From: an uncultured Actinomycetes bacterium
GTDB taxonomy: Bacteria; Actinomycetota; Thermoleophilia; UBA2241
Assembly: GCA_963767005.1 (NCBI GenBank)
Contig: CAVYCN010000003.1
Location: 393,576 to 457,575 of the forward strand
DNA length: 64,000 nucleotides
Direction of reading: 5' to 3'
Below the pieces are notes generated by a model. That model was not told the origin of the DNA, made no database searches, and worked only from the letters and a program-made list of their open reading frames with translations. Below are positions 10,732 through 56,821 of the stretch, in pieces. A program made the translations under genes and the position numbers. Each line of letters starts with the position of its first letter. The first letter of the stretch is position 1.

Positions 10732-12048
10732 ATGCGCGTACTGGTTGTCGGCGGCGGCGGTCGCGAGCACGCCCTGGTCCACGCTTTCTGCGCCTCGCCG
10801 CTGGCCACGCAGGTGTTCTGCGCCCCGGGCAACGCCGGCATCGACCAGGAGGCCGACCCCGTCGCGCTCGACGGTGGCGACCTCGAGGGCCTGCTCGCCT
10901 TCGCCCGGCGCGAGAAGATCGACCTGACGGTCGTCGGGCCCGAGGCGCCGCTCGTCGCCGGCATCGCCGACCTGTTCGCCGAGCACGGCCTGCTCGTCTT
11001 TGGCCCCACCCGCGAGGCGGCGCGCCTCGAGGGCAGCAAGGTCTTCGCCAAAGAGGTCATGGCCGACGCCGGCGTGGCCAGCGGCCGCTACCGCCGCCAC
11101 GACGACCTGAGCGCCGCCCTGCGCGACGTCGCCTCGCAGGACGTCTGGCCGCTCGTGGTCAAAGCCGACGGCCTGGCCGCCGGCAAGGGCGTGATCATCT
11201 GCAACGATTGCGGAGAGGCCGAGGCGGCCGTGCGGCTCTGCCTGGCCGAACGCGCCTTCGGCGAGGCCGGCGACGCCGTGCTGCTCGAGGAGCACCTGAG
11301 CGGCCCCGAGGTCTCGCTGCTCGCCCTCTGCGACGGCACCAGCGTGGTGCCGATGGCGCCGGCCCAGGACTACAAGCGCATCTTCGCCGGCGACCAGGGA
11401 CCCAACACCGGCGGCATGGGCAGCTACTGTCCCGTGCCCGGCTTCACGCCCGACGTGGCCGAGACGGTGGCCGAGGACCTCTTCCGGCCGGTGCTCGAGG
11501 CGCTCAAGCGACGCGGCGTCGACTATCGCGGCGTGCTCTACGGCGGCCTGATCGTGACCGACCACGGCGTCAAGCTGCTCGAGTTCAACTGTCGCTTCGG
11601 CGACCCCGAGACGCAGGCGATCCTGCCGCGGCTCGAATCCGACCTGCTCGAAGCCTGCCTGGCGACCGCCCGCGGCGAGCTCGACCCGGCGATGCTGCGT
11701 TTCAGGCCGGAAGCGTGCGTGTCGATCGTCATGGCCTCGCGCGGCTACCCGGCCTCGAGCTCGAAGGGCGACGTCATCACCGGCCTCTCCGAAGCGGCGG
11801 CGCTGCCCGACGTGACGATCTACCACGCGGCTACCGCGGTGCGCGGCAACGACATCGTCACCGCGGGGGGTCGCGTGCTGGCCGTGAGCGGCCTGGGCGA
11901 GCACTTCGCCGCGGCGCGCGAGCGCGCCTACGGCGCGCTCGCGCGCATCTCGTTCGCGGGCATGCAGTCGCGTCGCGACATCGCCGAGCGGGCCGTGCGC
12001 GCCGAGGCCGGCGAGATCGCGCTCTTCCCGGCGACGTGGGCTCGCTGA
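10732..12048 (+). CDS. purD: Phosphoribosylamine-glycine ligase
   Basis: GGGGREHAL, VGPEAPL, KADGLAAGKGV, GPNTGGMG and EFNCRFGDPETQ; AAGGAGG RBS. Confidence 0.98.
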   Translation: MRVLVVGGGGREHALVHAFCASPLATQVFCAPGNAGIDQEADPVALDGGDLEGLLAFARREKIDLTVVGPEAPLVAGIADLFAEHGLLVFGPTREAARLEGSKVFAKEVMADAGVASGRYRRHDDLSAALRDVASQDVWPLVVKADGLAAGKGVIICNDCGEAEAAVRLCLAERAFGEAGDAVLLEEHLSGPEVSLLALCDGTSVVPMAPAQDYKRIFAGDQGPNTGGMGSYCPVPGFTPDVAETVAEDLFRPVLEALKRRGVDYRGVLYGGLIVTDHGVKLLEFNCRFGDPETQAILPRLESDLLEACLATARGELDPAMLRFRPEACVSIVMASRGYPASSSKGDVITGLSEAAALPDVTIYHAATAVRGNDIVTAGGRVLAVSGLGEHFAAARERAYGALARISFAGMQSRRDIAERAVRAEAGEIALFPATWAR

Positions 12049-12803: not shown

Positions 12804-12839
12804 CGCCGGGCGACCCCCCCCGAGTCAAGGAGCCCCGAG

Positions 12840-13220: not shown

Positions 13221-13227
13221 CCGCGTC

Positions 13228-13743: not shown

Positions 13744-13812
13744 CCTCGCCGGGGGCTGCCCGTTTCTGAGAGAATCTGACCGTCTTCGACGGCCGCGACG
13801 GAGGGGCTCCCC

Positions 13813-41713: not shown

Positions 41714-41980
41714 GTGAGCAGGTCCATGGACGTCCGTGTCTACATCACCCCCAAGCAGGGCATCCTCGACCCCCAGGGCGTGGCCATCGAGCGGTCGCTG
41801 CCGGCCCTCGGGTTCGATGGCGTGAGCGGCGTCCGCGTGGGCAAGTTCATCGAGCTGCAGGTGGTGTTGCCCGACGCTACCTCGGTCGACGCGGGGCGCG
41901 CCGAGGTCGACGAGATGTGCCGCAAGCTGCTCGCCAACCCGATCATCGAGGATTACACCTTCACCGTCGACGAAGCGTGA
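41714..41980 (+). CDS. purS: FGAM synthase PurS subunit
   Basis: ILDPQG, VRVGK and LLANPIIEDY. Confidence 0.96.
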   Translation: MSRSMDVRVYITPKQGILDPQGVAIERSLPALGFDGVSGVRVGKFIELQVVLPDATSVDAGRAEVDEMCRKLLANPIIEDYTFTVDEA

Positions 41981-42029
41981 ACCCCGCCGCCTCGTCCCCC
42001 GTCCCCGGCCCTCGCGCCAGAGCCCTATC

Positions 42030-42782
42030 GTGAGCGCCGCTCGTCCCGTGCGCGTCGGGGTCATCGTCTTTCCCGGTATCAACACCGACCACGACACCTG
42101 GCACGCCGTCACCACCTTCGCCGGGGCCGAGCCGGTCTGGCTGTGGCACAAGGATACCGACCTGCACGACGTCGACGCCGTCATCATCCCGGGCGGCTTC
42201 TCCTACGGCGACTACCTGCGCTGCGGGGCGATCGCGCGCTTCAGCCCGATCATGGCCGCGATCGCCGACTTCGCCGCCGCCGGCGGCTACGTCATGGGCA
42301 TCTGCAACGGCTTCCAGATCCTGACCGAGGCCCATCTGTTGCCCGGCGCGCTCATCCGCAACATCGGCCTCAAGTTCGTCTGCCGCTACGTCGACCTGCG
42401 CGTCGAGAACGCCGGCACGCCCTTCACCCAGGCGGCCGACCCCGGCGACGTTCTGCGCGTCGTCGTCAAGCACAACGAGGGCAACTACCGGGTCGACCCC
42501 GCCACGCTCGCGCGCATGCGCGACAACGGTCAGGTCGTGCTGCGCTACTGCCGGCCCGACGGCACCGAGGCCGGTGCGGCGGCGGCCGGCACGATCGGCG
42601 GCTCGAGCCCCAACGGCGCGCTCGACGACATCGCCGGCGTCTGCAACGAGGACTTCAACGTGTTCGGTCTCATGCCCCATCCCGAGAACTCGGTCGAGGC
42701 CGGCCTCGCCGGCGGCACCGACGGCCGCGTGTTCTTCCGCTCGATCGTCGACAGCGTGCGCGACCGGCTGGTGCTCCGATGA
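42030..42782 (+). CDS. purQ: FGAM synthase glutaminase subunit
   Basis: FPG, PGGFSYGDYLR, GICNGFQIL and GLMPHPE. Confidence 0.97.
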   Translation: MSAARPVRVGVIVFPGINTDHDTWHAVTTFAGAEPVWLWHKDTDLHDVDAVIIPGGFSYGDYLRCGAIARFSPIMAAIADFAAAGGYVMGICNGFQILTEAHLLPGALIRNIGLKFVCRYVDLRVENAGTPFTQAADPGDVLRVVVKHNEGNYRVDPATLARMRDNGQVVLRYCRPDGTEAGAAAAGTIGGSSPNGALDDIAGVCNEDFNVFGLMPHPENSVEAGLAGGTDGRVFFRSIVDSVRDRLVLR

Positions 42783-45055
42783 CCGCGGTCGAGCAGCGCC
42801 GGGCAAGCGTCGAGGCGGCCGTCAAGCTCGGCCTCACGCCCGACGAGTTCGACCATATCTGTCGCATCCAGGAGCGCGAGCCGACCTACGTCGAGCTCGC
42901 CATCTACTCGCTCATGTGGAGCGAGCACTGCAGCTACAAGCACTCGCGGCCGATCCTCGGCCGTTTCCCCACGAGCAGTCCCCGCATCCTGCAGGGGCCC
43001 GGCGAGAACGCCGGCATCATCGACGTCGGCGACGGCTGGGCCGTGGCCATGAAGGTCGAGAGCCACAACCACCCGAGCGCGGTCGAACCGTTCCAGGGCG
43101 CGGCCACCGGCGTCGGCGGCATCGTGCGCGACATCTTCACCATGGGCGCCCGGCCCTGCGTGTCGCTCGACTCGCTGCGCTTCGGCGAGATCGACGGCGC
43201 CGAGAACGCCCGGCAGCGCTTCCTGTTCGACGGCGTCGTCGGCGGCATCGGCTTCTACGGCAACTGCCTCGGCATCCCCACGGTGGGCGGCGAGGTCTAC
43301 TTCGAGGACACCTACGCCGGCAACTGCCTGGTCAACGCCATGTCGGCCGGCCTGCTGCGCACCGACCAGATCGTGCGCGCCATCGCGAGCGGTCCCGGCA
43401 ACCACGTCGTGCTGATCGGCTCCAGGACCGGCCGCGACGGCATCGGCGGCGCCTCGGTGCTCGCTAGCCAGGAGTTCGACGAGACCCTCGAAGAGAAGCG
43501 CCCGAGCGTCCAGGTCGGCGACCCGTTCACCGAGAAGAAGCTGATCGAGGCCTGCCTCGAGCTGCTCCACCGCGGTCTCGTCGTGAGCATGCAGGACCTC
43601 GGCGCCGCCGGTCTCACCTCGTCGTCGTCCGAGATGGCCAGCAAGGGCCACGTGGGGCTCGACATCCATGCCGACCGCGTGCCGCTGCGCGAGGCCGACA
43701 TGGAGCCCTGGGAGATCATGATCTCCGAGAGCCAGGAGCGCATGCTGTCGATCGTCGACCCCGTCCGCCTGCCCGACGTGCGCGAGGTCTGCGAGCGCTG
43801 GGACCTCGACTGCACGGTGATCGGCGAGGTCACCGACTCGAAGATGCTGCGCATCTACTGGCACGGCAAGCGCGTCGCCGACATCCCGGCGCGCCGCCTG
43901 GCCGACGAGTCGCCCGTCATCCGCACGCCCTCGTTCAAGCCGGCCTACCTCGCCTCCGAGCCGCTCGCCGTCACCGACGCCGCCTACCCGGCGCCGGCCG
44001 ACCTCGGCGCCGCGCTGCTCGAGCTGCTGGCCGCGCCCAACATCGCCAGCAAGCGCTGCGCCTACGAGCAGTACGACTACATCGTGCAGGCCAACACCGT
44101 GCAGATCCCGGGCTCCGACGCGGCGGTGCTGCGCATCAAGGGCACCTCCCGCGGCATCGCCTTCGTCAACGACTGCAACGGGCGTCACTGCTACCTCGAC
44201 CCGTACCGCGGCGCCAAGGCCGCCGTGGCCGAAGCCGCGCGCAACCTGAGCTGCGTGGGCGCCCTGCCGGTGGCCGTCACCGACTGCCTCAACTTCGGCA
44301 ACCCCGAAAAGGGCGACATCTACTGGACCTTCGAGCAGGCGGTCGAGGGCATGGCCGAAGCCTGCGAGGCGCTCGACACGCCGGTCGTGTCGGGCAACGT
44401 GAGCTTCTACAACGAGAGCTTCGGCAACGCCATCTACCCCACGCCCATGGTCGGCATGCTCGGCCTGTTCGACGACGTCACGCGCCACTGCGACGGCCGC
44501 TTCAAAGCGGCCGGGGACCTCGTCTATCTGCTCGGCCCGACCGCCGGCGGCTGGCTCGACGGTTCCGAATTCCAGAAGGTCCACTACGGCCGCGTCGAAG
44601 GCCGCGTGCCCGACGTCGATCTCGAGCTCGAAAAGGAGCTCCAGCACGTGCTGCGCGAGGGCATCGCCCAGGGCCTCATTCACAGCGCCCACGACTGCGC
44701 CGAGGGCGGCCTGGCCGTCGCCCTGGCCGAGTGCTGCATCGCCAGCGGCGTCGAGGGCGGCGCGCTGACGGCGGCTCCGCCGCCGGCGCTCGGCGCCGCC
44801 CTCGCCCTGCCGGCCGGCGCGCCGCGTCCCGACCTCGCCCTGTTCGGCGAGGGGCCGTCGCGGGTCGTGGTCACCTGCGCCGCGGCCGACGCCGCCGCGC
44901 TCGCCGGCCTCGCCGGCGGGCTGCCGCTCACGGCGCTCGGCACGGTCGGCGGCGACCGCCTGCGCATCGACTCAGACGGCGGCGACGCGGCCATCGACCT
45001 GCCGGTCGCCGACCTGCACAAGGCCTACGAGTCGCTCCCCGAGCGACTCGCCTGA
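42779..45055 (+). CDS. purL: FGAM synthase PurL subunit (small type)
   Basis: MWSEHCSYK, ESHNHPS, GRDGIGGA, DLGAAG, SESQERM and VSGNVSFYN. Confidence 0.98.
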   Translation: MTAVEQRRASVEAAVKLGLTPDEFDHICRIQEREPTYVELAIYSLMWSEHCSYKHSRPILGRFPTSSPRILQGPGENAGIIDVGDGWAVAMKVESHNHPSAVEPFQGAATGVGGIVRDIFTMGARPCVSLDSLRFGEIDGAENARQRFLFDGVVGGIGFYGNCLGIPTVGGEVYFEDTYAGNCLVNAMSAGLLRTDQIVRAIASGPGNHVVLIGSRTGRDGIGGASVLASQEFDETLEEKRPSVQVGDPFTEKKLIEACLELLHRGLVVSMQDLGAAGLTSSSSEMASKGHVGLDIHADRVPLREADMEPWEIMISESQERMLSIVDPVRLPDVREVCERWDLDCTVIGEVTDSKMLRIYWHGKRVADIPARRLADESPVIRTPSFKPAYLASEPLAVTDAAYPAPADLGAALLELLAAPNIASKRCAYEQYDYIVQANTVQIPGSDAAVLRIKGTSRGIAFVNDCNGRHCYLDPYRGAKAAVAEAARNLSCVGALPVAVTDCLNFGNPEKGDIYWTFEQAVEGMAEACEALDTPVVSGNVSFYNESFGNAIYPTPMVGMLGLFDDVTRHCDGRFKAAGDLVYLLGPTAGGWLDGSEFQKVHYGRVEGRVPDVDLELEKELQHVLREGIAQGLIHSAHDCAEGGLAVALAECCIASGVEGGALTAAPPPALGAALALPAGAPRPDLALFGEGPSRVVVTCAAADAAALAGLAGGLPLTALGTVGGDRLRIDSDGGDAAIDLPVADLHKAYESLPERLA

Positions 45056-45062
45056 GCCCCCC

Positions 45063-46511
45063 GTGCGCGCCGATCGACCGCGCGATTGCTGTGGTGTCTT
45101 CGGCATCTTCGCGCCCGGCCGCGACGTCGCCCGTCTCACCTTCTTCGGCCTGTACGCCCTGCAGCACCGCGGCCAGGAGAGCGCCGGCATCGCCGTCGCC
45201 GACGAAGGCCAGATCACGGTCGTCAAGGACATGGGCCTCGTCTCGCAGGTCTTCGACGAGAAGGTCCTGGCCGGCCTGACCGGCTCGCACGCGATCGGCC
45301 ACGTGCGCTACTCCACGACCGGCGCCACCGCCTGGCAGAACTCGCAACCGCTCACCCGCTCGCGTGGCGAGCACACGATCGCGCTGGCCCACAACGGCAA
45401 CCTCGTGAACACGACCGAGCTCCGCGACGAGCTCCACGGCCAGGGCATCGACTTTCGCTCCGGCACCGACACCGAGGTGATCACGGCACTCATCGCCCAG
45501 CACGCCTCGAACGACCTGCTGGGCTCCGTCCGCGAGGCGGTGAGCCGCATCCGCGGGGCCTTCTCCGCGGCCGTGCTCACCGGCAAGAAGGTCGTCGGCT
45601 TTCGCGATCCTTACGGCGTAAGGCCGCTCTGCCTGGGCGACTTCGAGGGCAACCCCGTGATCTCGAGCGAGTCCTGCGCCCTCGACATCATCGGCGCCGA
45701 GTTCGTGCGCGAGATCGAGCCCGGCGAGATCGTCTGGACCCAGGGCGACGGCCAGGTGCGCAGCACCCGCGTCGAGCTGCCCGGCGCCCGGCCGGCCATG
45801 TGCATCTTCGAGTTCATCTACTTCGCGCGGCCCGACTCGCGCCTCTACGGCCGCACGCTGGCCGACTGCCGCTTCGAGATGGGGCGCCACCTCGCCATGG
45901 AGGCGCCGGTCGAAGCCGACTACGTCATCCCCGTGCCCGACACCGGCATCTCGGCGGCCATCGGCTACGCACGCGAGAGCGGCATCCCCTACTCCGAGGG
46001 GCTCATGAAGAACCGCTACGTGCACCGCACGTTCATCCAGCCCGACGACCACCTGCGCCAGCTCGGCATCCGCATGAAGCTCAACCCGATCCGCGCCGTC
46101 ATCGAGGGCAAGCGCCTCGTCGTGGTCGACGACTCGATCGTGCGCGGCAACACCACCCGCAAGCTCGTCGAGATGCTCTACCACGCCGGCGCCCGCGAGG
46201 TGCACCTGCGCATCAGCTCGCCGCCCATCCGGTTCCCCTGCTTCTACGGCATCGACATGGCGACGCGCGACGAGCTGATCGCCGCTCGCCAGAGCGTCGA
46301 CGGCGTGCGCGACCACGTCCGCGCGACCTCATTGCACTACCTCACCCTCGAGGGCCTGCAGGAGTCGACCGGCCTGCCGCGCGAGCGCTTCTGCCGGGCC
46401 TGCTTCGACGGCGACTACCCGATCGCGGTGCCCGAGGAGCTCGCCATGTGCAAGATGCGCTTCGAGGGCGGCGGCAACTGTCACCCCTCGGCGCCCGGCC
46501 CCGAAGGCTGA
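45063..46511 (+). CDS. purF: Amidophosphoribosyltransferase
   Basis: CGVFG, LQHRGQE, HNGNLVN, VDDSIVRG and PCFYGID; Fe-S cysteines present. Confidence 0.98.
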   Translation: MRADRPRDCCGVFGIFAPGRDVARLTFFGLYALQHRGQESAGIAVADEGQITVVKDMGLVSQVFDEKVLAGLTGSHAIGHVRYSTTGATAWQNSQPLTRSRGEHTIALAHNGNLVNTTELRDELHGQGIDFRSGTDTEVITALIAQHASNDLLGSVREAVSRIRGAFSAAVLTGKKVVGFRDPYGVRPLCLGDFEGNPVISSESCALDIIGAEFVREIEPGEIVWTQGDGQVRSTRVELPGARPAMCIFEFIYFARPDSRLYGRTLADCRFEMGRHLAMEAPVEADYVIPVPDTGISAAIGYARESGIPYSEGLMKNRYVHRTFIQPDDHLRQLGIRMKLNPIRAVIEGKRLVVVDDSIVRGNTTRKLVEMLYHAGAREVHLRISSPPIRFPCFYGIDMATRDELIAARQSVDGVRDHVRATSLHYLTLEGLQESTGLPRERFCRACFDGDYPIAVPEELAMCKMRFEGGGNCHPSAPGPEG

Positions 46512-46912: not shown

Positions 46913-47773
46913 CTAGACGACGGCGCGGTGGCCCTCGACGCGCAGCCGCTTGCGACGCTCGCGCCAGTCGGGCAGCACCGCTTCGACGCGGCGCCAGAAG
47001 GCCGGTCGGTGATTGAGCTCGCGCAGATGGCAGAGCTCGTGGACGACGACGTAGTCGAGCAGCGCCGGGTCGAGCAGCACGAGGCCCCAGTGGAGGCTCA
47101 CCCGGCCCTTCGCCGAGCAACTCCCCCAGCGGCTGCGCATGTCCTTGACGGTGAACGGCGGCGGCGCGACACCGACGACCGCCGCGAAGTGCGCGACGCG
47201 CGCTCCCAGTACGGCCCCGGCGCGCCGCCGATACCAGACGCGGAAGTGCTCGGCGGCGTCGGCGCGCGCGCCCTCGAGCAACTCGAAGCGACCATCCCGC
47301 AGACGGAGCGGCTCGTCCGTGCCCCCGTCGCCGTGGTCGACGGCCGTACCGTCCCGCTCGACGGCCGTACCGTCCCGCTCGACGGCCGCCACGTCGAACG
47401 CAAGCTGGCCGTCGTCGCGCGCGCCCACGGAGGCCGAGCCCGGGACGCCCGTCGGCACGAGATGCGCCTCCCCGACGACGACGAGCTCGTGCTCGACCCC
47501 CAGGTAGGGGAACCGCTCGCCGGCCTCGTAGCGGTGCGGCGGAAGCTGGGCGAGCGCGCTGCGCTCGCCCAGCTTCCGCCGCACCCAGGCGAGCTTGCCG
47601 CGCACGGCGGCCTCGGCCGCGCGCCGCGAGCAGCGGGCCGGCAGGGCCACGACCGGCGGTCCCTCGCGCGGGATCGTGATGCCGATCGTGCGGCGCCGGG
47701 CGCTGCGGCGCAGAGCGAACGTCACCTCGGCGACTGTCAGGGTGTCGCGGGTCTCACGGGGGGCGGGCATCAT
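46913..47773 (-). CDS. YgjP/DUF45 (M48-like) zinc metallohydrolase
   Basis: RRSARRRTIGI, SRWGSCS and YVVVHELCHLRELNH...FW. Confidence 0.9.
   Translation of the reverse strand: MMPAPRETRDTLTVAEVTFALRRSARRRTIGITIPREGPPVVALPARCSRRAAEAAVRGKLAWVRRKLGERSALAQLPPHRYEAGERFPYLGVEHELVVVGEAHLVPTGVPGSASVGARDDGQLAFDVAAVERDGTAVERDGTAVDHGDGGTDEPLRLRDGRFELLEGARADAAEHFRVWYRRRAGAVLGARVAHFAAVVGVAPPPFTVKDMRSRWGSCSAKGRVSLHWGLVLLDPALLDYVVVHELCHLRELNHRPAFWRRVEAVLPDWRERRKRLRVEGHRAVV
47337..47388. repeat. 21-bp in-frame tandem repeat (about 2.5 copies) inside the YgjP-like gene
   Basis: TCGACGGCCGTACCGTCCCGC twice plus a partial copy; encodes VERDGTA repeats. Confidence 0.85.
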
Positions 47774-47854
47774 CACTGTGCCGTAGAATAGCGGGCACGA
47801 GCGGCGCGGCACCATCCGCGACCTGCTCGTTCGGGGTCGACCAGGCGGAGGGTC

Positions 47855-48910
47855 ATGACAGAGGGCAGCGGTTTCACCTACCGGGAATCCGGCGTCGACG
47901 TGCAGGCCGGCAACGAGGCCGTCCGCCTGCTGCGCGAGCGCATCCGCACGGTCAAGCACCCTCTGGTCCTCGACGGCATCGGCGGCTTCGGCGGCATGAT
48001 CCGCATGCCGCCGCTCAAGGACGCCGTGCTCGTGGCCGGCGCCGACGGCGCCGGCACCAAATCGATGATCGCCCGCGAGATGGGCGTGTTCGACACCGTC
48101 GGCATCGACGCCGTCGCGATGAACGTCAACGACGTGTCGGCCTGTGGCGCCGTGCCGTTCTTCGTGCTCGACTACCTCGTAGTGAGCAAGCTCGTCCCCG
48201 CGCGTGTGGCCGACATCGTGGCCGGCGTCGACGAAGGCTGCCGGCAGGCCGAGTGCGTGCTGCTCGGCGGCGAGACCGGCGAGCACCCCGGACACTTCCG
48301 CCACGACGACGACTTCGACATCGCCGCCTTTGCGGTCGGCATCGCCGCGCGCGACGAGCTCTGGACCGCGGCCGCCGTGGCGGCCGGCGACGCCATCGTG
48401 GGCCTGTCGTCGACCGGCGTGCACTCCAACGGCTTCAGCCTGGTGCGTCACGTGCTGGCGCGGCGTCACGTCGACCTACACGAGCCCTTCCCCGGCGCCG
48501 GCCGCTCGATCGGCGACGTCCTGCTCACGCCGACCGCCATCTACAGCCCGGTGCTGCACGACCTGGGCCACGCCTGCCGCGTGCACGCCGCGGCCCACAT
48601 CACGGGCGGCGGCTTTCCCGACAACGTCGGCCGGGCGCTACCCGGCGGCCTCACCGCCGTCCTCGACCTCGAGAGCTGGCGCCTGCCGGCCGTGTTCGCC
48701 TGGCTGCGCGAGGCCGGCGTCGACGACGACGGCCTGCTCGCCACCTTCAACTGCGGCATCGGCATGGTCGTGGTGCTGCCCGCCGACGAGGTCGCGCGCG
48801 CGTTCGACGTCTGCGCCAAACGCGGCGTCGAGGCCCGCGTCGTCGGCGAGGTCGTGGCCCGCGCCGCGGGCGAGCCGGCGGTCGGCTACCGGGGGAAGCT
48901 GACGACGTGA
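47855..48910 (+). CDS. purM: AIR synthase
   Basis: YRESGVD, GGFGG, DGAGTK, GGETGEHP, GVHSNGFSL, HITGGG and FNCGIG. Confidence 0.97.
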   Translation: MTEGSGFTYRESGVDVQAGNEAVRLLRERIRTVKHPLVLDGIGGFGGMIRMPPLKDAVLVAGADGAGTKSMIAREMGVFDTVGIDAVAMNVNDVSACGAVPFFVLDYLVVSKLVPARVADIVAGVDEGCRQAECVLLGGETGEHPGHFRHDDDFDIAAFAVGIAARDELWTAAAVAAGDAIVGLSSTGVHSNGFSLVRHVLARRHVDLHEPFPGAGRSIGDVLLTPTAIYSPVLHDLGHACRVHAAAHITGGGFPDNVGRALPGGLTAVLDLESWRLPAVFAWLREAGVDDDGLLATFNCGIGMVVVLPADEVARAFDVCAKRGVEARVVGEVVARAAGEPAVGYRGKLTT

Positions 48911-49905
48911 GGACGTACGACCTGATCGGCTGCGGGGCGCTCAACCTCGACCTCATCTACCGCCCGCCGGCCGACTCGCCGCTCTGGGGCGAGCTGCCGG
49001 CGCCCGGCGCCGAGCAGGCGGTCACGCCCGACGTCCGCGACCGCCTGCTGCCTGCCCTGGCCGGCCTCGAGCCGGCGCGCAGCGGCGGCGGTCAGGCGGC
49101 CAACACGTCGTACGCCCTGGCGCGCATGGGCTTCGCTGCGGCCATGCTCGGACGCGTCGGCGCCGACGACGCCGGGCGCTTCCTGGCCGACCAGCTCGCC
49201 CCGTGCGACGCGCGCTACCTCGCCCGGCAGGGCGAGTCGGGCTGCGTCTACGTGCTGCTCAACGACTCGGGCGAGCGCCGCAACCTGGTGTGGCCGGCGG
49301 CCAACGACGACTTCGCGCCGGCCGACCTGCCGCGACGCCTGCCGCCGACCCGCTTCGCCTACTTCTCGTCGTTCGTCGGCGAGCGCGCCCTGCAGACGCA
49401 GCTCGCCCTGCTCGAACGGCTGCCCGGCGACGTCGAGATCGCCTTCGACCCGGGCGAGATCTACGCGCGCCTGGGCGTGAAGCGCTTCATGCCGTTCCTG
49501 CGGCGCGCCTCGTATGTCTTTGCCACCGAGAGCGAGCTCGAGACGCTCTGCGGCCTGCCGGCCGACAAGGCGCTCGGCTTTCTGCTCGACGTCGGCGTCG
49601 GCCTCGTCGTGTGCAAGATGGGCGACCGCGGCGCGCAGATCACCGGGCGCCGCCTCGACCTGTACGTGCCGCCGCACCCCGCCGAAGTGGTCGACGTCAC
49701 CGGCGCCGGCGACCTGTTCGCGGCCGGCTTCTTCGGCGGCCTGCTCGAGGGCCTCGGCCTCGAGGCCGCCGGTCGCCTGGCCGCCTGGGCGGCCTCGCAG
49801 GGCATCGGCGGGCTCGGCCGCAGCACGTACCCCAATGCCGCCGCCTTCCGCGAGCGCGTCGCCGAGGAACGCGAGCGCGCCGACCGCGTGACGCGCCTGC
49901 CATGA
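48907..49905 (+). CDS. PfkB family carbohydrate/nucleoside kinase
   Basis: GALNLD, GGGQAANT, GRVGADDAG, FDPG and VVDVTGAGDLFAAGF; GTGA coupling to purM. Confidence 0.92.
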   Translation: MRTYDLIGCGALNLDLIYRPPADSPLWGELPAPGAEQAVTPDVRDRLLPALAGLEPARSGGGQAANTSYALARMGFAAAMLGRVGADDAGRFLADQLAPCDARYLARQGESGCVYVLLNDSGERRNLVWPAANDDFAPADLPRRLPPTRFAYFSSFVGERALQTQLALLERLPGDVEIAFDPGEIYARLGVKRFMPFLRRASYVFATESELETLCGLPADKALGFLLDVGVGLVVCKMGDRGAQITGRRLDLYVPPHPAEVVDVTGAGDLFAAGFFGGLLEGLGLEAAGRLAAWAASQGIGGLGRSTYPNAAAFRERVAEERERADRVTRLP

Positions 49906-49930
49906 CCCGCCCCACGGCGGCGCTTCCGTC

Positions 49931-50833
49931 ATGAGGATCGGCTGGCTGGCGACCGGCCGCGACCCGGCGGCCCGCACGCTGCTCTCCGAAGTTGTGCGCC
50001 GCGCCGGGCGCGACGGCGTCGACCTCGACATCGCCGTCGTGTTCTGCGATCGCGAGCGCGGCGAGCACGCCGAGAGCGACGCCTTTCTCGACCTCGCGGC
50101 CGCGCTCGGCCTCACCACCGTCACCAGGTCGAGCGCCGCGAGCTGGCGCGACTGGCTCCAGCATCGCGACGAGATGGAGCGCGTCGCGAGCAAGGCCGCC
50201 CTGCGCGAGGCCTGGCGCACTGCGTTCCACCGCGACGTGATCGAGATCCTCGCCGGCCACGGCGTCGATCTGCTCGTGCTGGCCGGCTACATGCTGATCA
50301 CGAGCCCCGAGCTCTGCGCCCACTTTGCCATGCTCAACCTGCACCCGGCCCTGCCGGGCGGGCCTCAAGGCACCTGGCAGCAGGTCATCTGGAGCCTGCT
50401 GGCCGACGAGGCCCGTGAGACGGGCGCCATGATCCACCTGGCCACCGCCGACCTCGACCGGGGGCCGGTCGTGGCCTATTGCTCGTTCCCTATCGCCGGC
50501 CTGCGCTACGACCGGCTGTGGCATGCCTTTCGCCGCGGCCGCGAACGCCTCGGCCTCGAGGCCCTGGCGGCCGCCGAAGGCGAGGCGCAGCCGCTGTTCG
50601 CCGAGATCCGCCGCCAGGGTGAGCGCCGCGAGATCCCGCTGCTCTACCAGGCGGTGCGCGCCTTCGCCCAGGGGCAGCTTCTGGTGCGCGACGGCGCCGT
50701 GGTCGGCGTCGGCCTGCAGCCGCCCCTCGACCTCACCGAGGCCGTCGAAGCCGAGCTCGCCGCCGACGCCGCGGCAAGCGCCGGCGACCAGGCCGCCGCC
50801 GCCGAGAGCGACGACACCGGGGGGCGGCCATGA
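49931..50833 (+). CDS. Divergent PurN-like 10-formyl-THF-dependent formyltransferase
   Basis: LAGYMLI, NLHPALP and ETGAMIHLATADLDRGP. The N-terminus (GWLATGRD) and length (300 aa) differ from canonical PurN. Confidence 0.8.
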   Translation: MRIGWLATGRDPAARTLLSEVVRRAGRDGVDLDIAVVFCDRERGEHAESDAFLDLAAALGLTTVTRSSAASWRDWLQHRDEMERVASKAALREAWRTAFHRDVIEILAGHGVDLLVLAGYMLITSPELCAHFAMLNLHPALPGGPQGTWQQVIWSLLADEARETGAMIHLATADLDRGPVVAYCSFPIAGLRYDRLWHAFRRGRERLGLEALAAAEGEAQPLFAEIRRQGERREIPLLYQAVRAFAQGQLLVRDGAVVGVGLQPPLDLTEAVEAELAADAAASAGDQAAAAESDDTGGRP

Positions 50834-51867
50834 CCGCGACGCCGCGTCTGTTCGTGACCGACTGTGAGGGTCCCCTCACGCGCAACGACAACGCCATGGA
50901 GGTCTGCGCCGCCTACCTGCCCGACGGGGCCGAGCTGTACGCCCGCCTGTCGCGCTACGACGACTTCCTCGCCGACATCGTCCACCGGCCCGGCTACAAC
51001 GCCGGCGACACGCTGCGACTGATCGTACCGTTCCTGCTCGCCTACGGCGTGACCGACCGCGACATCGAGGACTACAGCGCCGACACCGTGCTCGTCGTGC
51101 CGGGCGCCCGCGACCTGCTGGCCGACGTCGCCGCGGCGCTGCCCGCCTACATCATCTCGACCTCGTATTCGCCCTACATCAGGGCGCTCTGCCGCGTCAC
51201 CGGCTTTCCGTTCGCGCAGTGCCGCTGCACGACGATCGATCTCGACGCCTGGCACCTCACCCGCGACGAGTGCGAGTGGCTGCGCGACCGCGCCGAATCC
51301 GTCCTCGAGCACCCGGTGATCGAGCTGCCCGACGAGGCCCGGTCGGTCGACGACCTGTCGCCCGCCGACCGCGCCGCCGTCGCCGAGCTCGACCGGCTCT
51401 TCTGGGTCGACATGGCCGCGGCCGGCCGGCGCAGCGCCGACGTCGTCGCCGCGGTGCGGCCGGTCGGCGGCGGCCTCAAGCTCGAGGCGCTCAGCGCCAT
51501 CGCGGCCGGCCGCCGCGTCGAGCTGGCCGACGTCATGTACGTCGGCGACTCGATCACCGACGTGCCGCCCTTCGCGGCCGTGCGCGCCGCCGGCGGCGTG
51601 GCCGTGAGCTTCAACGGCAACCGTTACGCGCTGGCGGCGGCCGAGCTGGCGGTGGCCGCGGCCGACACGCGCCCCACCCGCGAGCTCGCGCTCGCCTTCG
51701 CCGCCGGGGGCCGACAGGCCGTGCTCGACGCCGTGCGACAGTGGCCGCCGACGAGCAAGCCGCTGCCGCGGGCCGGCCTGCTCTCGGAGTCGGCTGCGGC
51801 GCTCTCCCACGCCTCGGCCTACGCGCGTTCGCACGTGCGGGGCGAGCGCGTCGCTCGACTCGGCTGA
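50830..51867 (+). CDS. HAD-like protein, EhaR/COG4030-like
   Basis: FVTDCEGPLTRNDNA, GYNAGDTL, IISTSY, GGGLK, YVGDSITD and SFNGNRYA; family assignment is from recall. Confidence 0.75.
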   Translation: MTATPRLFVTDCEGPLTRNDNAMEVCAAYLPDGAELYARLSRYDDFLADIVHRPGYNAGDTLRLIVPFLLAYGVTDRDIEDYSADTVLVVPGARDLLADVAAALPAYIISTSYSPYIRALCRVTGFPFAQCRCTTIDLDAWHLTRDECEWLRDRAESVLEHPVIELPDEARSVDDLSPADRAAVAELDRLFWVDMAAAGRRSADVVAAVRPVGGGLKLEALSAIAAGRRVELADVMYVGDSITDVPPFAAVRAAGGVAVSFNGNRYALAAAELAVAAADTRPTRELALAFAAGGRQAVLDAVRQWPPTSKPLPRAGLLSESAAALSHASAYARSHVRGERVARLG

Positions 51868-52021
51868 CCGGCAGGCCGGCGGCCGGCGGCCTCGCCCAGA
51901 CTCCCTGGTCGCGACCCTGCCACCGAATTCGGTCGTACGGCGCTTTCGCCAGCAGGCCGTTCACTTGCGAGGCGGCGCCCTATAGACTGTCGGGAGCGAC
52001 GAACGAGCAAGGAGTCGATAC

Positions 52022-53563
52022 GTGAAGGTTAAACGAGCTCTTCTCTCCGTCTTCAACAAAGCCGGTCTCCAAGAGTTCGCACGCGCGCTGGCCGACATGG
52101 GCGTCGAGATCGTCTCGACCGGGGGCACCGCCCGCCTGCTGGCCGACCAGGGTATCCCGGTCACCGAGGTCGCCGACGTCACGCAGTTTCCCGAGATGCT
52201 CGGCGGGCGCGTCAAGACCATGCACCCGCGCATCCACGCCGGCATCCTCGCCCGGCGCGACGACCCCGACCACATGCGTACCCTCGCCGAGCACGACATC
52301 CAGCCCATCGACATGGTCGTGGTCAGCCTCTACCCGTTCGAAGAGGTCGCGGCCCAGCGCGGCGCCGACGAAGCGGCGGTGATCGAGATGATCGACATCG
52401 GCGGCCCCAGCATGATCCGGGCCGCCGCCAAGAACCACGAGAGCGTCGCGGTCGTGACCGAGCCCGACGACTACGCCGCCATCCTCGACGAGCTCAAGGC
52501 AAGCGGCGGCGAGCTCTCGCCCCTCACCTGCCGCCACCTCGCCACGAAGGCCTTTCACAAGACGGCGCACTACGACTTCGTCATCGCCAACTGGTTCTCC
52601 GAGACCGAGGGCGACTTTCCGAGTCACATCCTGCGCGACTACGAGAAGGTCATGGAGCTGTCCTACGGCGAGAACCCGCACCAGCGGGCGGCCTACTACG
52701 CCGAAAGCGGCGCGCGCCGCCACCTGCTGTCGCGCGTCACCCAGCTCCACGGCAAGAAGCTCTCGTTCAACAACCTCTACGACCTGCACGCCGCGCGCGC
52801 CCTCGCCAGCGAGTTCGCCCTGCCGGCCTGCGTCATCATCAAGCACAACAACCCCTGCGGCTCGGCGCTCGCCGAGACGCTCGAGCGCGCCTACGTCAAG
52901 GCGCTCGCCTGCGACCCGGTGTCGGCCTTTGGCTCCGTGATCGCGGTCAACCGCCCGGTCGACCTGGCCACCGCGCAGCGCATGTCCGAGCTGTTCGTCG
53001 AGGTCGTCTTCGCGCCGTCCTACGACGACGACGCCCTCGAGCTGCTCGCCCGCAAGGCCGACATCCGCATCCTGGTCGACAACGAGCGCCGCAAGAACAA
53101 CCCCGGCGAGATGGACTACAAGCGCGTGCTGGGCGGCGTGCTCGTGCAGGACCGCGACGCCGACCTCGAGGACCGCGAGTCCATGGAGGTCGTGAGCGAG
53201 CGTCACCCGACCGAGGCCGAGTGGGGCGACCTCATCTTCGCGAGCAGGGTGGCCAAGCACGTCAAGTCGAACGCCATCGTCATCGCCAAGGACCTCGCCA
53301 CTCTGGGCGTCGGCGCCGGCCAGATGAGCCGCGTCGACTCGACGCGCATCGCCCTCGAGAAGGCGCACGGCGACCTCAAGGGCGCGGTGATCGGCTCCGA
53401 CGCGTTCTTCCCCTTCCCCGACGCCGTCGAGCTCGCCATCGACAACGGCATCACCGCCTTCATGCAGCCGGGCGGCTCCAAGCGCGACGACCTCGCGGTG
53501 AGGCTCTGCGACGAACGAGGCGCGGCGATGGTCTTCTCGCGCCGCCGCCACTTCCTTCATTAG
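52022..53563 (+). CDS. purH: AICAR transformylase/IMP cyclohydrolase
   Basis: RALLSV, STGGT, GRVKTMHP, IDIGGP, YGENPHQ, KHNNPCG, SDAFFPF and QPGGS. Confidence 0.98.
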   Translation: MKVKRALLSVFNKAGLQEFARALADMGVEIVSTGGTARLLADQGIPVTEVADVTQFPEMLGGRVKTMHPRIHAGILARRDDPDHMRTLAEHDIQPIDMVVVSLYPFEEVAAQRGADEAAVIEMIDIGGPSMIRAAAKNHESVAVVTEPDDYAAILDELKASGGELSPLTCRHLATKAFHKTAHYDFVIANWFSETEGDFPSHILRDYEKVMELSYGENPHQRAAYYAESGARRHLLSRVTQLHGKKLSFNNLYDLHAARALASEFALPACVIIKHNNPCGSALAETLERAYVKALACDPVSAFGSVIAVNRPVDLATAQRMSELFVEVVFAPSYDDDALELLARKADIRILVDNERRKNNPGEMDYKRVLGGVLVQDRDADLEDRESMEVVSERHPTEAEWGDLIFASRVAKHVKSNAIVIAKDLATLGVGAGQMSRVDSTRIALEKAHGDLKGAVIGSDAFFPFPDAVELAIDNGITAFMQPGGSKRDDLAVRLCDERGAAMVFSRRRHFLH

Positions 53564-53572
53564 CGGCGCCAG

Positions 53573-54820
53573 GTGAACCCGGCGTCCGGCGACGGCGCAC
53601 GCCAGACCGGGCGGCCGGCCTACGACCGCGTCGTCCTCGGCGACGACGCCCTGCGCCTGCGCCCCTGGCGGACCACCGAGGCGCCGGTCATGGCGGCGGC
53701 CTGCGCCGACCCCGACATCGCCCGCTTCTGCATGATGCCGGCCGGCTACACGGTCGCCCTCGCTCGCGACTTCATCGCCGACGCGCCACGGGCCTGGTCC
53801 GAGGACGGCTGGCTCCACCTGGCGCTGGCCAGCGGAGCCGACGACCGCGTGGTCGGCGCCGTCGGCCTGCTGAGCGGCCTGGCCGAGGATGCGAAGGCCG
53901 ACCTGGGCTACTGGGTCGTGCCCGACGCTCGCGGTCGCGGTCTGGCGCGCGCCGGCGTGGGGCTCATGACGGACTGGGCGTTCGCGTCGCTCGGCCTGCA
54001 CCGCCTGGCGATCGGCACCATGGTCGGCAACGACCCCTCTCGGCGCGTCGCCCGCGGTCTCGGCTTTCGCCCCGAGGCGCTGCTACGCAGCGACCGGCCG
54101 CTCGACGGCAGGCGCACCGACTGCGTGCTCTACTCGCTGCTCGACGACGCGTGGCGCGCGGGTGCGGGCGGCGGCGAGGGCCGGCCGGCGGCCGCACTAC
54201 CCGACGAGGCGCTCCTACCGGCCCTCGCCGCCGCCCGCACCGACTACCCCGCCGTCGCGCCGGCGCTGCCCGTCGCCCCGCCGCCCCTCGGCGACGGTGC
54301 CATCACCCTGCGGCCCTACCGCGACGCTGATGTGCCCGACATGGTGCGCGCCTGCAGCGATCCCGAGACGCAGCGCTGGCTCCCGGTGCTGCCCACGCCC
54401 TACACCGACGCCGACGCGCGCGAGTTCCAGGCGCGCGCCGCGACCGCCTGGCAGCAGCGCGGCGCCGCCCTGCTGTGCATCGCCGACGCCGCCAGCGACC
54501 GGCTGCTGGGGGGCGTCGGCCTGCACGGCGACGAGATGTGGGCCGCCGTGGCCGAGATCGGCTATCACGTGGCACCGTGGGCGCGCCGCCGGGGCGTCGC
54601 CACGGCGGCGGCGCGCCTCGTCGCCCAGTGGGCGCTCGACGTGATAGGGCTGGGCCGTGTGCAGATCCTGGCCGACATGCGCAACCGCGCGTCGCGCGGC
54701 GTAGCCGAAAAGCTGGGCTTCACCTACGAGGGCGTGCGGCGCCGCGATCACGGCCGCCCGGGCGACGTCGGCGACTACGCCGTCTACTCGCTGCTGCCGG
54801 GCGACCCGCGCCCCTGGTAG
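53573..54820 (+). CDS. Tandem RimJ/RimL-type GNAT acetyltransferase
   Basis: Two repeats: LRP...GYW..PDARGRG...N..S.RVA..LGF and LRP...GYH..PWARRRG...NRAS..VAEKLGF. Confidence 0.88.
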   Translation: MNPASGDGARQTGRPAYDRVVLGDDALRLRPWRTTEAPVMAAACADPDIARFCMMPAGYTVALARDFIADAPRAWSEDGWLHLALASGADDRVVGAVGLLSGLAEDAKADLGYWVVPDARGRGLARAGVGLMTDWAFASLGLHRLAIGTMVGNDPSRRVARGLGFRPEALLRSDRPLDGRRTDCVLYSLLDDAWRAGAGGGEGRPAAALPDEALLPALAAARTDYPAVAPALPVAPPPLGDGAITLRPYRDADVPDMVRACSDPETQRWLPVLPTPYTDADAREFQARAATAWQQRGAALLCIADAASDRLLGGVGLHGDEMWAAVAEIGYHVAPWARRRGVATAAARLVAQWALDVIGLGRVQILADMRNRASRGVAEKLGFTYEGVRRRDHGRPGDVGDYAVYSLLPGDPRPW

Positions 54821-54945
54821 GGCCTGTCACAGCGCCGAGTCGACGCGGCCGGGCGTCCGGCGTGTCGTCGACGACCCGGGCGTCCGGCGCGCCCGCACAC
54901 GCAGCCGACGCTCGCCGCTGCGCCGGTGATACAATCCCCGGACTC

Positions 54946-55021
54946 GGGCCGCTAGCTCAGTTGGTAGAGCACCTGACTTTTAATCAGGGAGTCCTGGGTT
55001 CGAGTCCCAGGCGGCCCACCA
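54946..55021 (+). tRNA. tRNA-Lys (anticodon TTT)
   Basis: Acceptor GGGCCGC/GCGGCCC, anticodon arm CCTGA-CTTTTAA-TCAGG, T-loop TTCGAGT and encoded CCA; TACAAT at 54930. Confidence 0.97.
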
Positions 55022-55360
55022 GAAAGCGCCTCTACGCAGCGCTTCTTGCTGCTGACTCCAGACCTGCGACGGCGCCTGCCGACGCGATGCCGACGGTTAT
55101 GCTGCAATATAGTGCAGTAAATCGACCCCCTGCCGACCAGCGAAGTGGTCAAGATGCAGGGCTTTTGGCTCGCCGAAGGGGCGCTGAAGGGCGATTTCTC
55201 TGCAGCATAACGGCCCTTTTGGACGCCAACTGACACCATCTGGTCGCGTTTCGCTGCGAATCGGGCGCGCAACGGCAGCAAGACCGCGCTCCGTCACCGA
55301 CACCTGCAGCGTCCTCACGGTCTTCTCCCGACGCGTGGCCGAGCGGAGGCCGAGCACGCG

Positions 55361-55372
55361 AGGCGGCCCACC
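55361..55372 (+). repeat. 12-bp copy of the tRNA-Lys 3' end (att-like)
   Basis: AGGCGGCCCACC is identical to 55009-55020. Confidence 0.65.
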
Positions 55373-55543
55373 GCCACCTCTGCAAGCGATGTTCTTGTCT
55401 GCTCCACGTCGACCACGGTATCCGGTCGCCCCCTCAGATGAAAGCGGAGATGCGAACAAGCCAGGAACGGTCGGCGGGAGCACCGCCATGCACGCCGCGC
55501 CGGCCGCGGTCGGCCCACGACGTTGACGGGCGCGGACGCGGAG

Positions 55544-56821
55544 CTACCCCGCGGTGCCGCCGTTCAGGAACATCACGCCGGTCGCGGCCCCGGACTGGAC
55601 GAGCACATCAGGCTTGCCGTCGCCGTTGAAGTCGCCCGAGACGAATGCCTGCGGCGCGCTGAACGGTCCGCTGAACGTAAGCGGCGCCTGGAAGCTGCCG
55701 TCGCCGTCGCCGAGCATCACCTCAAGGCCACCGGGGGCGCCGATCGCCAGGTCGAGGTTGCCGTCGCGGTTGAAGTCTGCGGCCGCCAGCGGCGGGTTGT
55801 CGGCCTGCGGCAGCAGGTCGTAGTCGGCCAGTTTGGCAAACCCACCGTGGCCGTTGCTCCGCGAGACGGTCAGCACGGTGTAGTCCGGGCCGCCGTAGTC
55901 GACCCCGTCGGCCTCGTACTGGGCGATCAGGTCCTGCGTGCCGTCGTGGGCCAGGTCAGCCAACACCACCCTGTCGGGCAGCAGCTCGCCGCTGTCTGTC
56001 GTGCTCACCGAGCGGAACGTGCCGTTGCCGCGGCCCAGGGCGACGCAGAGCAGACCATCAGGGTTGTTCTGGCTGACATAGCCGCCGGCGACCACATCGA
56101 TCCTGCCGTCGCCGTTGATGTCGGCCAAGGCCAGCGTGGTCAGGGGGCCCAGGTTTCCGTCCTTGTCCTGACCGTCGGCGTTGGATATCCGCTCACGGCC
56201 GAAGGCGCCGTGGCCATCGCCGAGCAGCACGACGAGCTTGGTGCCGGCCGCCGCCAGGATGTCGGGGCGGTGGTCACCGTTTAGGTCGCGCACCGCCAGT
56301 GCCGAGGGGAAGCCACCGAGGGCGAACGAGCCGAGGTCGTAGCGGTGGGCCAGGCGGAAGCCGCCATGGCCCGTGTTGAGAAGCACCGCGACCTCCACGT
56401 GGAACCGGCCCTTCACGAGGAGACTCGCCAGCACGACGAGGTCGGGCCGACCGCCGCGGTCGAGCTTGGCGGCGACGATCGCGTGAACGTAGGCTTCCGA
56501 CCAGCCGGGCAGGCCGATGACGTGCTCGGTGCCGAGGCTGCCGCCCTTCGTGCCGAAGCGGACCACGACCTTCGACCCCAGGGCGATCGCGAGGTCGCTG
56601 CGGCCGTCGCCGTTGAAGTCGCCGACCGCCATGGGCCCGCTCCTGCCGGCCGCCAGCGGCACGCCGGGCAGCACGGTGAAGATAGGCGGAAGTGACGCGG
56701 CGGCGGTGCCGCTTGCGGGCAAGGTGTCGGCGAAGACCTGCGCCGGCAGCGCGAGCGCCGCGCAGGCAGCGATGGCGAGAAGAACCGCGACGAGTGTCGC
56801 GAGTCGAACCGAACGGTCCAC
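55544..56821 (-). CDS. Secreted FG-GAP/VCBS-repeat protein
   Basis: Signal peptide; repeats GDFNGDGRSDL, DLNGDHRPDI, DINGDGRIDV, DFNRDGNLDL and GDFNGDGKPDV. Confidence 0.9.
   Translation of the reverse strand: MDRSVRLATLVAVLLAIAACAALALPAQVFADTLPASGTAAASLPPIFTVLPGVPLAAGRSGPMAVGDFNGDGRSDLAIALGSKVVVRFGTKGGSLGTEHVIGLPGWSEAYVHAIVAAKLDRGGRPDLVVLASLLVKGRFHVEVAVLLNTGHGGFRLAHRYDLGSFALGGFPSALAVRDLNGDHRPDILAAAGTKLVVLLGDGHGAFGRERISNADGQDKDGNLGPLTTLALADINGDGRIDVVAGGYVSQNNPDGLLCVALGRGNGTFRSVSTTDSGELLPDRVVLADLAHDGTQDLIAQYEADGVDYGGPDYTVLTVSRSNGHGGFAKLADYDLLPQADNPPLAAADFNRDGNLDLAIGAPGGLEVMLGDGDGSFQAPLTFSGPFSAPQAFVSGDFNGDGKPDVLVQSGAATGVMFLNGGTAG

Follow-up and report, generated by a model that had tools for sequence, protein, structure and literature searches.

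How is the third step of purine synthesis accomplished in a genome where purM and purH are separated by a kinase, a long formyltransferase (FT) and a HAD-family protein? De novo purine synthesis is seen as a fixed path of phosphorylated intermediates, whose step-3 enzymes are PurN and PurT. We examined this arrangement in a window of 64,000 nt, meaning the whole stretch of DNA that was analysed (Table 1). The initial annotation had placed the three genes in the purM-purH slot, with a GTGA overlap between purM and the kinase, a 25-nt gap between the kinase and FT, and an ATGA overlap between FT and HAD; all of these were read in the sequence, and 154 nt separated HAD from purH. The only Rfam family found in the window was tRNA, and therefore no ZTP riboswitch is present; promoter and terminator consensus searches of positions 47500-55100 gave no matches.

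Table 1. Purine genes and the three intervening genes, in coordinates of the 64,000-nt window
Feature	Position	Strand	Basis
purD (GAR synthetase), canonical, makes the step-3 substrate GAR	10732..12048	+	
purS-purQ-purL-purF, upstream genes of this pur cluster	41714..46511	+	purL: sequence and position, not family scan
purM (AIR synthetase)	47855..48910	+	TIGR00878 over cut-off
PfkB/ribokinase-family kinase, 332 aa, predicted riboside 5'-kinase	48907..49905	+	PF00294, motifs
Long PurN-fold formyltransferase (FT), 300 aa	49931..50833	+	Formyl_trans_N
AF1437/EhaR-family HAD, phosphatase-like, 345 aa	50830..51867	+	HAD E 5e-7, AF1437 match
purH (AICAR formyltransferase/IMP cyclohydrolase)	52022..53563	+	TIGR00355 over cut-off

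The source genome (G000; Thermoleophilia-related, 100% complete) carries purD, purC, purE, purB, purS, purQ, purF, purM and purH, along with formate-THF ligase. A genome-wide profile search found no canonical PurN over cut-off, and a genome-wide search found no PurT, which supports the earlier proposal that the kinase, FT and HAD stand in place of both. The sole other PF00551 gene in the genome was fmt, located beside def, and there was no match to PF01913 (the Ftr fold). Judged from sequence, the trio very probably performs the conversion of GAR to FGAR by some mechanism.

Properties of the three proteins

FT matched Formyl_trans_N (E 5e-14) and scored 60.4 bits against the PurN equivalog TIGR00639, under its cut-off of 150.1. 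Its structure model (pLDDT 96.6) has the GART fold, and the top ten Foldseek matches to the model were GAR transformylases (PurN, E 1e-14); FT has helical insertions and a remodelled phosphate loop that includes D11. FT had been described as about 100 aa longer than usual, and its 300 aa compare with the ~190 aa of the aligned canonical PurN stretches. The catalytic N-x-H-P and Asp, said to be kept, were located at N136-L-H138-P139 and D176; among 85 family representatives, N136 and H138 occurred in 85/85 and D176 in 84/85, while E234 and R96 were each present in 83/85. We take the corresponding Glu of PurN to lie on the ribose side and the Arg on the folate side.

The phosphate-binding region was different. 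The SGxGSN loop is replaced at residues 7-15 by ATGRDPAAR, as first reported; SGxG[ST]N, which we take to be the N-terminal phosphate loop of PurN, was found in 0/85 FT representatives vs 7/7 canonical PurN proteins from relatives, and the polar phosphate contact that PurN presumably makes three residues before the Glu is mostly V, L or F in the FT family. Position 11 was Asp in 50/85 representatives and Gly in 30/85; many of the Gly11 proteins have GxGS, and these fall mostly in one clade. Ala7 is a change private to the FT of this window, with Ser/Thr at this position in 82/85 representatives. Several basic or polar residues are kept (R10 in 64/85, R227 in 85/85, R233 in 73/85, plus S/T7-T/S8), and together these could form a new phosphate site.

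The HAD protein has motif I D11-x-E13, motif II S110-T-S, motif III K217, motif IV G239-D-S-x-T-D244 and an acidic cap. The variant motif I, DCEG, was found at residues 11-14 as annotated, with Glu as the second Asp of the motif. We compared the best 80 of 563 metagenome HAD loci (53 high-GC, 27 low-GC); D11 and E13 were present in 80/80, and K217, D240 and D244 in all loci covering those positions. The EhaR-like assignment held, in that the sole PDB sequence match was AF1437 (1y8a; E 4e-34), and many homologues in JGI are labelled "energy-converting hydrogenase A subunit R". A role as hydrogenase part was rejected here, as the annotated loci had no flanking hydrogenase gene. Among HAD proteins 651-2000 aa long, a single match was returned, P0405; its tail resembles the opposite strand of a HAD gene, and it was discarded as an artefact. 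Viral contigs yielded no relative of HAD or FT, and plasmids no HAD.

The kinase is a PfkB protein (E 8e-35; PF00294 121 bits vs a cut-off of 25.8) with intact GALNxD, GGxAANT and anion-hole DxTGAGD motifs, the last being invariant in 20/20. Its best score against characterised PfkB equivalogs (ribokinase, nucleoside kinase, R1P kinase) was 92.5 bits, where the cut-off is 330. When the source genome was searched with a profile of the archaeal-module kinase described below, the window kinase ranked top (164 vs 86 bits), and its subfamily is common to the archaeal module.

Distribution of the bacterial trio and of its Ftr-type counterpart

Within the family, FT was found in 32/36 genomes, HAD in 31/36 and the kinase in 34/36, with the trio contiguous in 31/36; in other families of the class each of the three was seen in 0/24. 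The same arrangement occurs in six other Actinomycetota families; as it recurs there and in 31/36 family genomes, it is not due to chance, and a one-off gene insertion was rejected. Across Actinomycetota, FT and HAD were present in the same 13/401 genomes, and the 12 FT/HAD genomes outside the family had no PurT. The initial annotation had suggested profiling the trio against purN and purT; in 61 relatives, FT + HAD and canonical PurN were mutually exclusive. PurN over cut-off was restricted to the 24 other-family genomes and to G020 and G027, and HAD was missing from all 26/61 genomes with canonical PurN.

G020 and G027 (98% complete) have purM-kinase-purH, FT and HAD being gone and a canonical purN present; the two are sisters, so that the joint loss counts as one event. 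Their kinases are 71% identical and their purM proteins 76%, which indicates conservation as usual; the kinase, being intact where FT and HAD were lost, must therefore have at least one further job. The proposed trio was thus upheld for FT and HAD, which form a tight unit, but not to the same degree for the kinase, which is looser and is kept in G020/G027 without both. A natural FT-HAD fusion was found from two sources (P0248/P0393). A GTDB scan with a single FT protein gave 1 locus. Atlas FT clusters were commonest in Chloroflexota, whereas this was so for none of the listed HAD clusters; FT may therefore act without HAD there.

Among the best 80 of 563 HAD loci, 47/53 of the high-GC loci had FT, and the 6 without it have ≤437 nt upstream. 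The low-GC, archaeal-looking loci had HAD with an Ftr-family gene in 24/27, of which 18 also had the kinase and 24 purD; no locus of the 80 had both FT and Ftr. Most of the HAD-Ftr loci read purD-HAD-Ftr-kinase, the order of the steps proposed below, and HAD-Ftr-kinase matches the order of Methanothermobacter ehaR-ehaS-ehaT. The HAD catalytic and cap residues were identical in the high-GC and low-GC sets of these 80 loci. Kinase and HAD co-occur widely elsewhere, even around this unrelated Ftr-type formyltransferase within archaeal pur clusters, and the initial annotation's contrary possibility, that the pair would not accompany FT elsewhere, was not borne out.

In Methanothermobacter, EhaR-EhaS-EhaT are encoded at the end of the eha operon (PMC3087415). 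Passages on these genes in that paper and on Ftr2 in PMC9012536 give no purine role; a formyltransferase or ribokinase role is deemed unlikely, or Ftr2 is left uncharacterised. Brown et al. 2011 found neither PurN nor PurT in seven purine-making archaea (PMC3261824); in Chadwick et al. 2022 (PMC9012536) the same gap is given for ANME-1, an uncharacterised Ftr2 is separately reported in much the same groups, and ANME-2a/2b are listed with Ftr2 as well as PurN. The main text of PMC7325909 did not mention purine. Our literature search, from which subscription papers were mostly absent, found no published description of the module, no purine role for EhaR/EhaS/Ftr2, no publication on the bacterial folate-type version, and none on the phosphate contacts of GART.

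Proposed pathway and its rivals

We consider it somewhat probable that step 3 proceeds by a detour through the unphosphorylated riboside, for which we infer every substrate and the step order. In this scheme GAR would first lose its 5'-phosphate to the HAD; the glycinamide riboside so formed would be formylated by the PurN-fold FT, with 10-formyl-THF as the probable donor, and then rephosphorylated by the PfkB kinase at the expense of ATP. This reading is preferred because the FT phosphate loop is remodelled while the catalytic, ribose and folate residues are intact. The HAD carries a conserved acidic cap (D20, E24, D44, D45, D60), which could favour GAR, with its free amine, over the neutral FGAR; such a choice would avoid a futile cycle. 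The bacterial module likely arose from an archaeal-type Ftr2 module when a folate enzyme took the place of the formyltransferase, and the phosphate site of this enzyme drifted afterwards. Several points count against the riboside detour: each purine made in this way takes one more ATP; G020/G027 would have no use for a kinase dedicated to FGAR riboside; the Gly11/GxGS clade exists; Chloroflexota FT is perhaps found without HAD; and ANME-2a/2b have both Ftr2 and PurN.

The kept residues S/T7-T/S8, R10, R227 and R233 may bind phosphate and also count against the detour. They favour a rival, which we regard as unlikely, in which FT formylates GAR directly via a rebuilt phosphate site, and HAD and kinase, inherited alongside it, do housekeeping by clearing or salvaging a purine intermediate, for example by dephosphorylating excess GAR, FGAR, AIR or AICAR and rephosphorylating leaked ribosides. 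The GART fold, the GxGS clade and a kinase that outlives the loss of FT and HAD are in agreement with direct formylation; however, it leaves unexplained why HAD is absent from every canonical-PurN genome, why HAD is present with both unrelated formyltransferases, and why FT and HAD were lost jointly and occur fused.

Somewhat more doubtful is a shuttle in which an aspartyl-phosphate of the HAD moves phosphate from GAR to formylglycinamide riboside with no ATP, leaving the kinase to top up leaked ribosides. This would fit a tight FT + HAD unit with a looser kinase, and ThrH, whose motif I is DxE, is among the structural neighbours of HAD (1rku, rank 13), although SerB structures rank above it. 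ThrH combines phosphatase and phosphotransferase activity in one HAD enzyme (PMC1079889), moving phosphate between phosphoserine and homoserine. Against the shuttle, the kinase accompanies FT/Ftr + HAD in essentially every intact locus of both domains, and in Dehalococcoides mccartyi 195 the PfkB gene DET0711 adjoins DET0712, which encodes a putative GAR transformylase, and no HAD is named beside it.

Two further readings were rejected. That the HAD is a phosphoserine phosphatase supplying serine-derived one-carbon units to formyltransferases, unrelated to the GAR phosphate, is very improbable: its nearest characterised folds are SerB and the source genome has no SerB over cut-off (TIGR00338, whose matches do not include the HAD locus), but G020/G027 lost HAD without gaining SerB (over cut-off in 0/5 genus members tested), formate-THF ligase is present, and the Ftr-type partner has another C1 carrier with the same HAD kept. 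It is hardly credible that FT is a PurU-like 10-formyl-THF hydrolase releasing formate for another enzyme, since, despite its altered phosphate loop and PurU structures among its fold and sequence matches, it scored 31 and 23 bits against PurU models (cut-offs 223-286), below its PurN score, begins with the transformylase strand and no N-terminal ACT domain, had only GART structures in the Foldseek top ten, and would leave the genome with no PurT to use formate and no GAR formyltransferase whatever.

Comparison with known systems

The bacterial module serves as a Rosetta stone, in which an archaeal-type HAD and kinase stand at the purN position beside a recognisable PurN-fold enzyme, and it is this that ties the module to step 3. 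With confidence evenly divided, we propose a third step-3 route in anaerobic bacteria and archaea, in which GAR goes by way of its unphosphorylated riboside, using a dedicated HAD phosphatase, a riboside formyltransferase of one of two unrelated folds (in bacteria the PurN fold, using folate; in archaea the Ftr fold) and a PfkB kinase; EhaR/EhaS/EhaT would then be this module, not hydrogenase subunits, and would fill the GAR formyltransferase gap in Archaeoglobi, Methanobacteria, Methanopyrus and ANME-1. If this is true, AF1437/EhaR, EhaS and EhaT gain a function, and many genes annotated as "purN" or "hydrogenase subunit R" would need renaming. FT probably uses folate, and the mechanism is therefore testable in E. 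coli without archaeal cofactors; the trio would allow a test of the archaeal gap listed as open in 2011 and in 2022 (PMC3261824, PMC9012536).

FT resembles PurN (EC 2.1.2.2; TIGR00639; PDB 1cde, 3auf) in fold, in the N-x-H-P and Asp, Glu and Arg residues, and in its purM-purH position; it differs in its ~20% identity, its lost loop and added residues, and in always having HAD and kinase alongside in the genomes examined. HAD and AF1437 of Archaeoglobus fulgidus match over their full length (profile E 2e-58, TM 0.83) and share DxEG motif I, the YDD cap and a C-terminal R..RG..G.LG; identity is ~30%, and AF1437 is a structural-genomics protein whose PDB record gives no function. The next structural neighbours, the SerB/ThrH phosphoserine phosphatases (1f5s, 1rku), have the same HAD core and helical cap, whereas HAD is only 10-16% identical to them, has a bigger cap and a C-terminal extension, and falls far under TIGR00338. 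The route through riboflavin to FMN also contains an enzyme needing unphosphorylated substrate, preceded by a HAD phosphatase and followed by a kinase; this is a precedent for the dephosphorylate-modify-rephosphorylate logic only, as pathway and enzymes differ. A parallel known from published description is EhaR-EhaS-EhaT/Ftr2, likewise an AF1437/EhaR HAD with a formyltransferase and a ribokinase-type gene, but the formyltransferase there is of the Ftr fold (pterin/methanofuran type) and here of the PurN fold (folate type); the window trio would thus work like the Ftr version without being that version.

The purM-purH interval and step 3 in the source genome

In the window's pur cluster, purS-purQ-purL-purF is separated from purM, the trio and purH, in that order, by a small ORF and a YgjP-like gene on the opposite strand. 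The GTGA overlap, 25-nt gap and ATGA overlap that the initial annotation placed at the trio junctions are all present in the sequence. The kinase was assigned to the PfkB family (E 8e-35) and scored under every characterised equivalog; the long PurN-fold formyltransferase (FT) matched Formyl_trans_N and reached 60 bits with the PurN profile, where 150 are required; the phosphatase-like protein (HAD) had AF1437 as its sole PDB match by sequence. The FT homologues that carry an organism name come from Thermoleophilia. Two genes matched PF00551 in the source genome (100% complete, 4.87% contamination), FT and an fmt adjoining def; PurT gave no match over the cut-off, and Ftr, an unrelated formyltransferase fold, gave none. 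With purD, purC, purE, purB and formate-THF ligase all found, the rest of the purine pathway is complete and a supply of 10-formyl-THF is possible; besides the trio, there is no other candidate for step 3 (GAR to FGAR) in this genome. The purC gene lies on the same contig just before the window start. The tandem acetyltransferase directly after purH was found in several family relatives too.

Features of the window and of three comparison loci
Feature	Sequence	Position	Strand
purD-purE-RidA-like-purB (second pur cluster)	window	10732-15114	
PfkB kinase	window	48907-49905	+
FT (300 aa)	window	49931-50833	+
HAD (345 aa)	window	50830-51867	+
Tandem GNAT acetyltransferase	window	53573-54820	
Probable island edge with broken integrase (next three rows)	window	54946-58255	
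tRNA-Lys(TTT)	window	54946-55021	
FG-GAP repeat gene	window	55544-56857	-
Tyrosine integrase, split in two ORFs	window	57012-57491 and 57473-58255	-
purD-HAD, then PurH-like gene	L169	1329-2614	
Divergent PurD adjoining HAD	L159	3642-5063	
Kinase of G147	L215	5995-6984	

Distribution of the trio and of canonical PurN

Of the 60 relatives compared, 36 belong to the family; 32 of these have FT, 31 HAD and 34 the kinase, and by coordinates the trio was contiguous in 31. None of the three genes occurred in the 24 genomes from other families. One further family genome, G035, carries kinase-FT at a contig end, and two incomplete ones (G010, 56%; G028, 76%) were without all three genes. When the trio was profiled against purN and purT, as the initial annotation had proposed, canonical PurN exceeded the cut-off in 26 of 61 genomes, namely the 24 trio-free outside genomes and the family members G020 and G027 (98% complete), while PurT was found in 0 of 61. 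In G020 and G027 the order is purM-kinase-purH, FT and HAD are gone, and a canonical purN lies elsewhere; because the two are sisters in the purM tree (9 rows, SH-aLRT 99), they count as one natural replacement, not two. At locus L218 of G021 (51% complete), the pur genes and the trio are without exception broken into several frames, most likely through assembly errors.

A survey of 401 Actinomycetota genomes, with the best 5-6 candidates per genome scored, gave the identical 13 genomes for HAD and FT. Twelve of these lie outside the family; kinase-FT-HAD stood on one contig in 10 and was split at contig ends in 2. Their other PF00551 match was Fmt-like, PurN was over the cut-off in 0 of the 4 tested and PurT was found in 0 of 12. 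At the threshold used, the kinase profile, whose training alignment included 9 of the matched genomes, had matches in 51 of the 401, and their scores showed a gap: 12 trio genomes and G020 reached at least 341 bits, G379 matched in two pieces, G147 reached 230, and the remainder had 183 or less.

Searching 1.84 billion representatives with the FT profile returned 199 relatives (E up to 1e-30). Among the 150 listed was a 599-aa FT-HAD fusion (P0248), with a second member from a different source. Also seen were a 633-aa FT-PurC fusion (P0305, same 150) and a 431-aa protein with an AAA_28 nucleotide-kinase-like domain followed by FT (P0297, 15 contigs). The trio is a real and conserved arrangement; very likely it replaces PurN and constitutes a new variant of step 3, of putative chemistry.

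Partners of HAD and the predicted route

The HAD alignment detected at least 600 metagenome stretches, 563 of them confirmed; the best 80 of at least 563 were analysed, and this sample therefore leans to close relatives. Within these 80, high-GC loci held FT in 47 of 53 and the kinase in 41, the six without FT each having 437 nt or less of upstream sequence. Low-GC loci held an Ftr-family gene in 24 of 27, the kinase in 18 and purD in 24; two without Ftr had another gene next (L161, L169) and one reached a contig end (L173). FT and Ftr occurred together in none of the 80. In L169, purD-HAD is followed directly by a PurH-like gene. HAD residues D11, E13, G14, P15, N19-D20-N21 and E24 were identical in 80 of 80, and K217, D240, D244, R333 and R337 in every locus covering them; positions 41-45 and 55-61, used as search patterns, were left out of this claim. 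The HAD model lay closest to AF1437 (TM 0.83), then SerB and ThrH, with four intact motifs and an acidic cap.

The FT model (pLDDT 96.6) showed a GART fold with added helices. In 85 representatives N136, H138, P139, G147 and R227 were invariant, D176 was kept in 84, and E234 and R96 in 83 each. In GART structures, the Glu binds ribose and the Arg folate, and the SGxG[ST]N loop and the position corresponding to FT 231 bind the GAR phosphate. That loop was found in 0 of 85, and position 231, three residues before the ribose-side Glu, was mostly V, L or F. At position 11, the residue preceding helix 1 in the model, 50 representatives have Asp and 30 have Gly, with 26 of the 30 inside one branch of 28 (FastTree); one member of this clade is named Dehalococcoidia. 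The simplest reading of these residues is a folate-dependent enzyme with a ribose-bearing acceptor lacking phosphate; R10, R227 and R233 keep alive the opposite reading, that FT may still bind phosphate.

Since two unrelated formyltransferases share one HAD, the HAD product is most simply a diffusible substrate. Both PurD upstream and PurL downstream are canonical enzymes of the phosphoribosyl type, and the loop would be closed by a kinase of the ribokinase family. HAD would convert GAR to glycinamide riboside, the formyltransferase would yield the formyl riboside, and the PfkB kinase would phosphorylate this to FGAR, a route that we somewhat favour. The main evidence against such a detour is that the kinase is conserved in G020 and G027 (71% identity between the two; purM 76%) after loss of FT and HAD. 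This objection is tempered because G147, which has canonical PurN, holds a related kinase outside any pur cluster with degraded GALNxD and GGxAANT motifs, possibly a relic. That FT formylates GAR directly, with HAD and kinase a housekeeping pair, is unlikely, and a phosphate shuttle by HAD slightly more so. Serine supply by HAD is very improbable, SerB being absent whether HAD is present or lost, and a PurU-like hydrolase role for FT is scarcely credible.

Probable archaeal counterparts and known systems

The commonest low-GC order was purF-purD-HAD-Ftr-kinase, facing purQ/L/S/M. Both Ftr Pfam domains were matched by 5 of 5 proteins tested, and 3 of 3 exceeded the Ftr subfamily cut-off and missed that of the FhcD equivalog. 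Low-GC locus L159 encodes an archaeal-type MAT; the nearest Atlas cluster was 90% archaeal, Bathyarchaeota being commonest. When the PfkB genes of the source genome were scored with a profile from 8 archaeal kinases, the window's kinase came out on top (164 vs 86 bits). The PurD of L159 is divergent (263 bits vs a cut-off of 288, about 30% to that of the window), as in similar low-GC loci, and this may bear on what HAD receives.

No description of the trio module was found in the literature searched. In Kaster et al. (PMC3087415), the final genes of the Methanothermobacter eha operon are ehaR-ehaS-ehaT, and no purine role is assigned to them. For cultured D. mccartyi 195, the supplement of PMC4340931 gives, as gene names only, DET0711 (PfkB), DET0712 (putative phosphoribosylglycinamide transformylase) and DET0713 (PHP domain), which may represent kinase-FT with a different phosphatase; DET0713 may instead belong with efp. 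According to the relevant passages of Chadwick et al. 2022 (PMC9012536), an uncharacterised Ftr2 occurs in ANME-1, -2a and -2b, Archaeoglobales, M. kandleri and M. marburgensis; ANME-1 is without PurN and PurT, a gap to which those passages do not link Ftr2, and ANME-2a/2b have Ftr2 and PurN together, which disfavours strict exclusion. Brown et al. 2011 (PMC3261824) describe seven archaea (two Archaeoglobi, four named Methanobacteria species and M. kandleri) whose pathways were intact except that neither purN nor purT was found. This stated gap in archaeal purine synthesis becomes testable through the trio, a folate-type version usable in E. coli.
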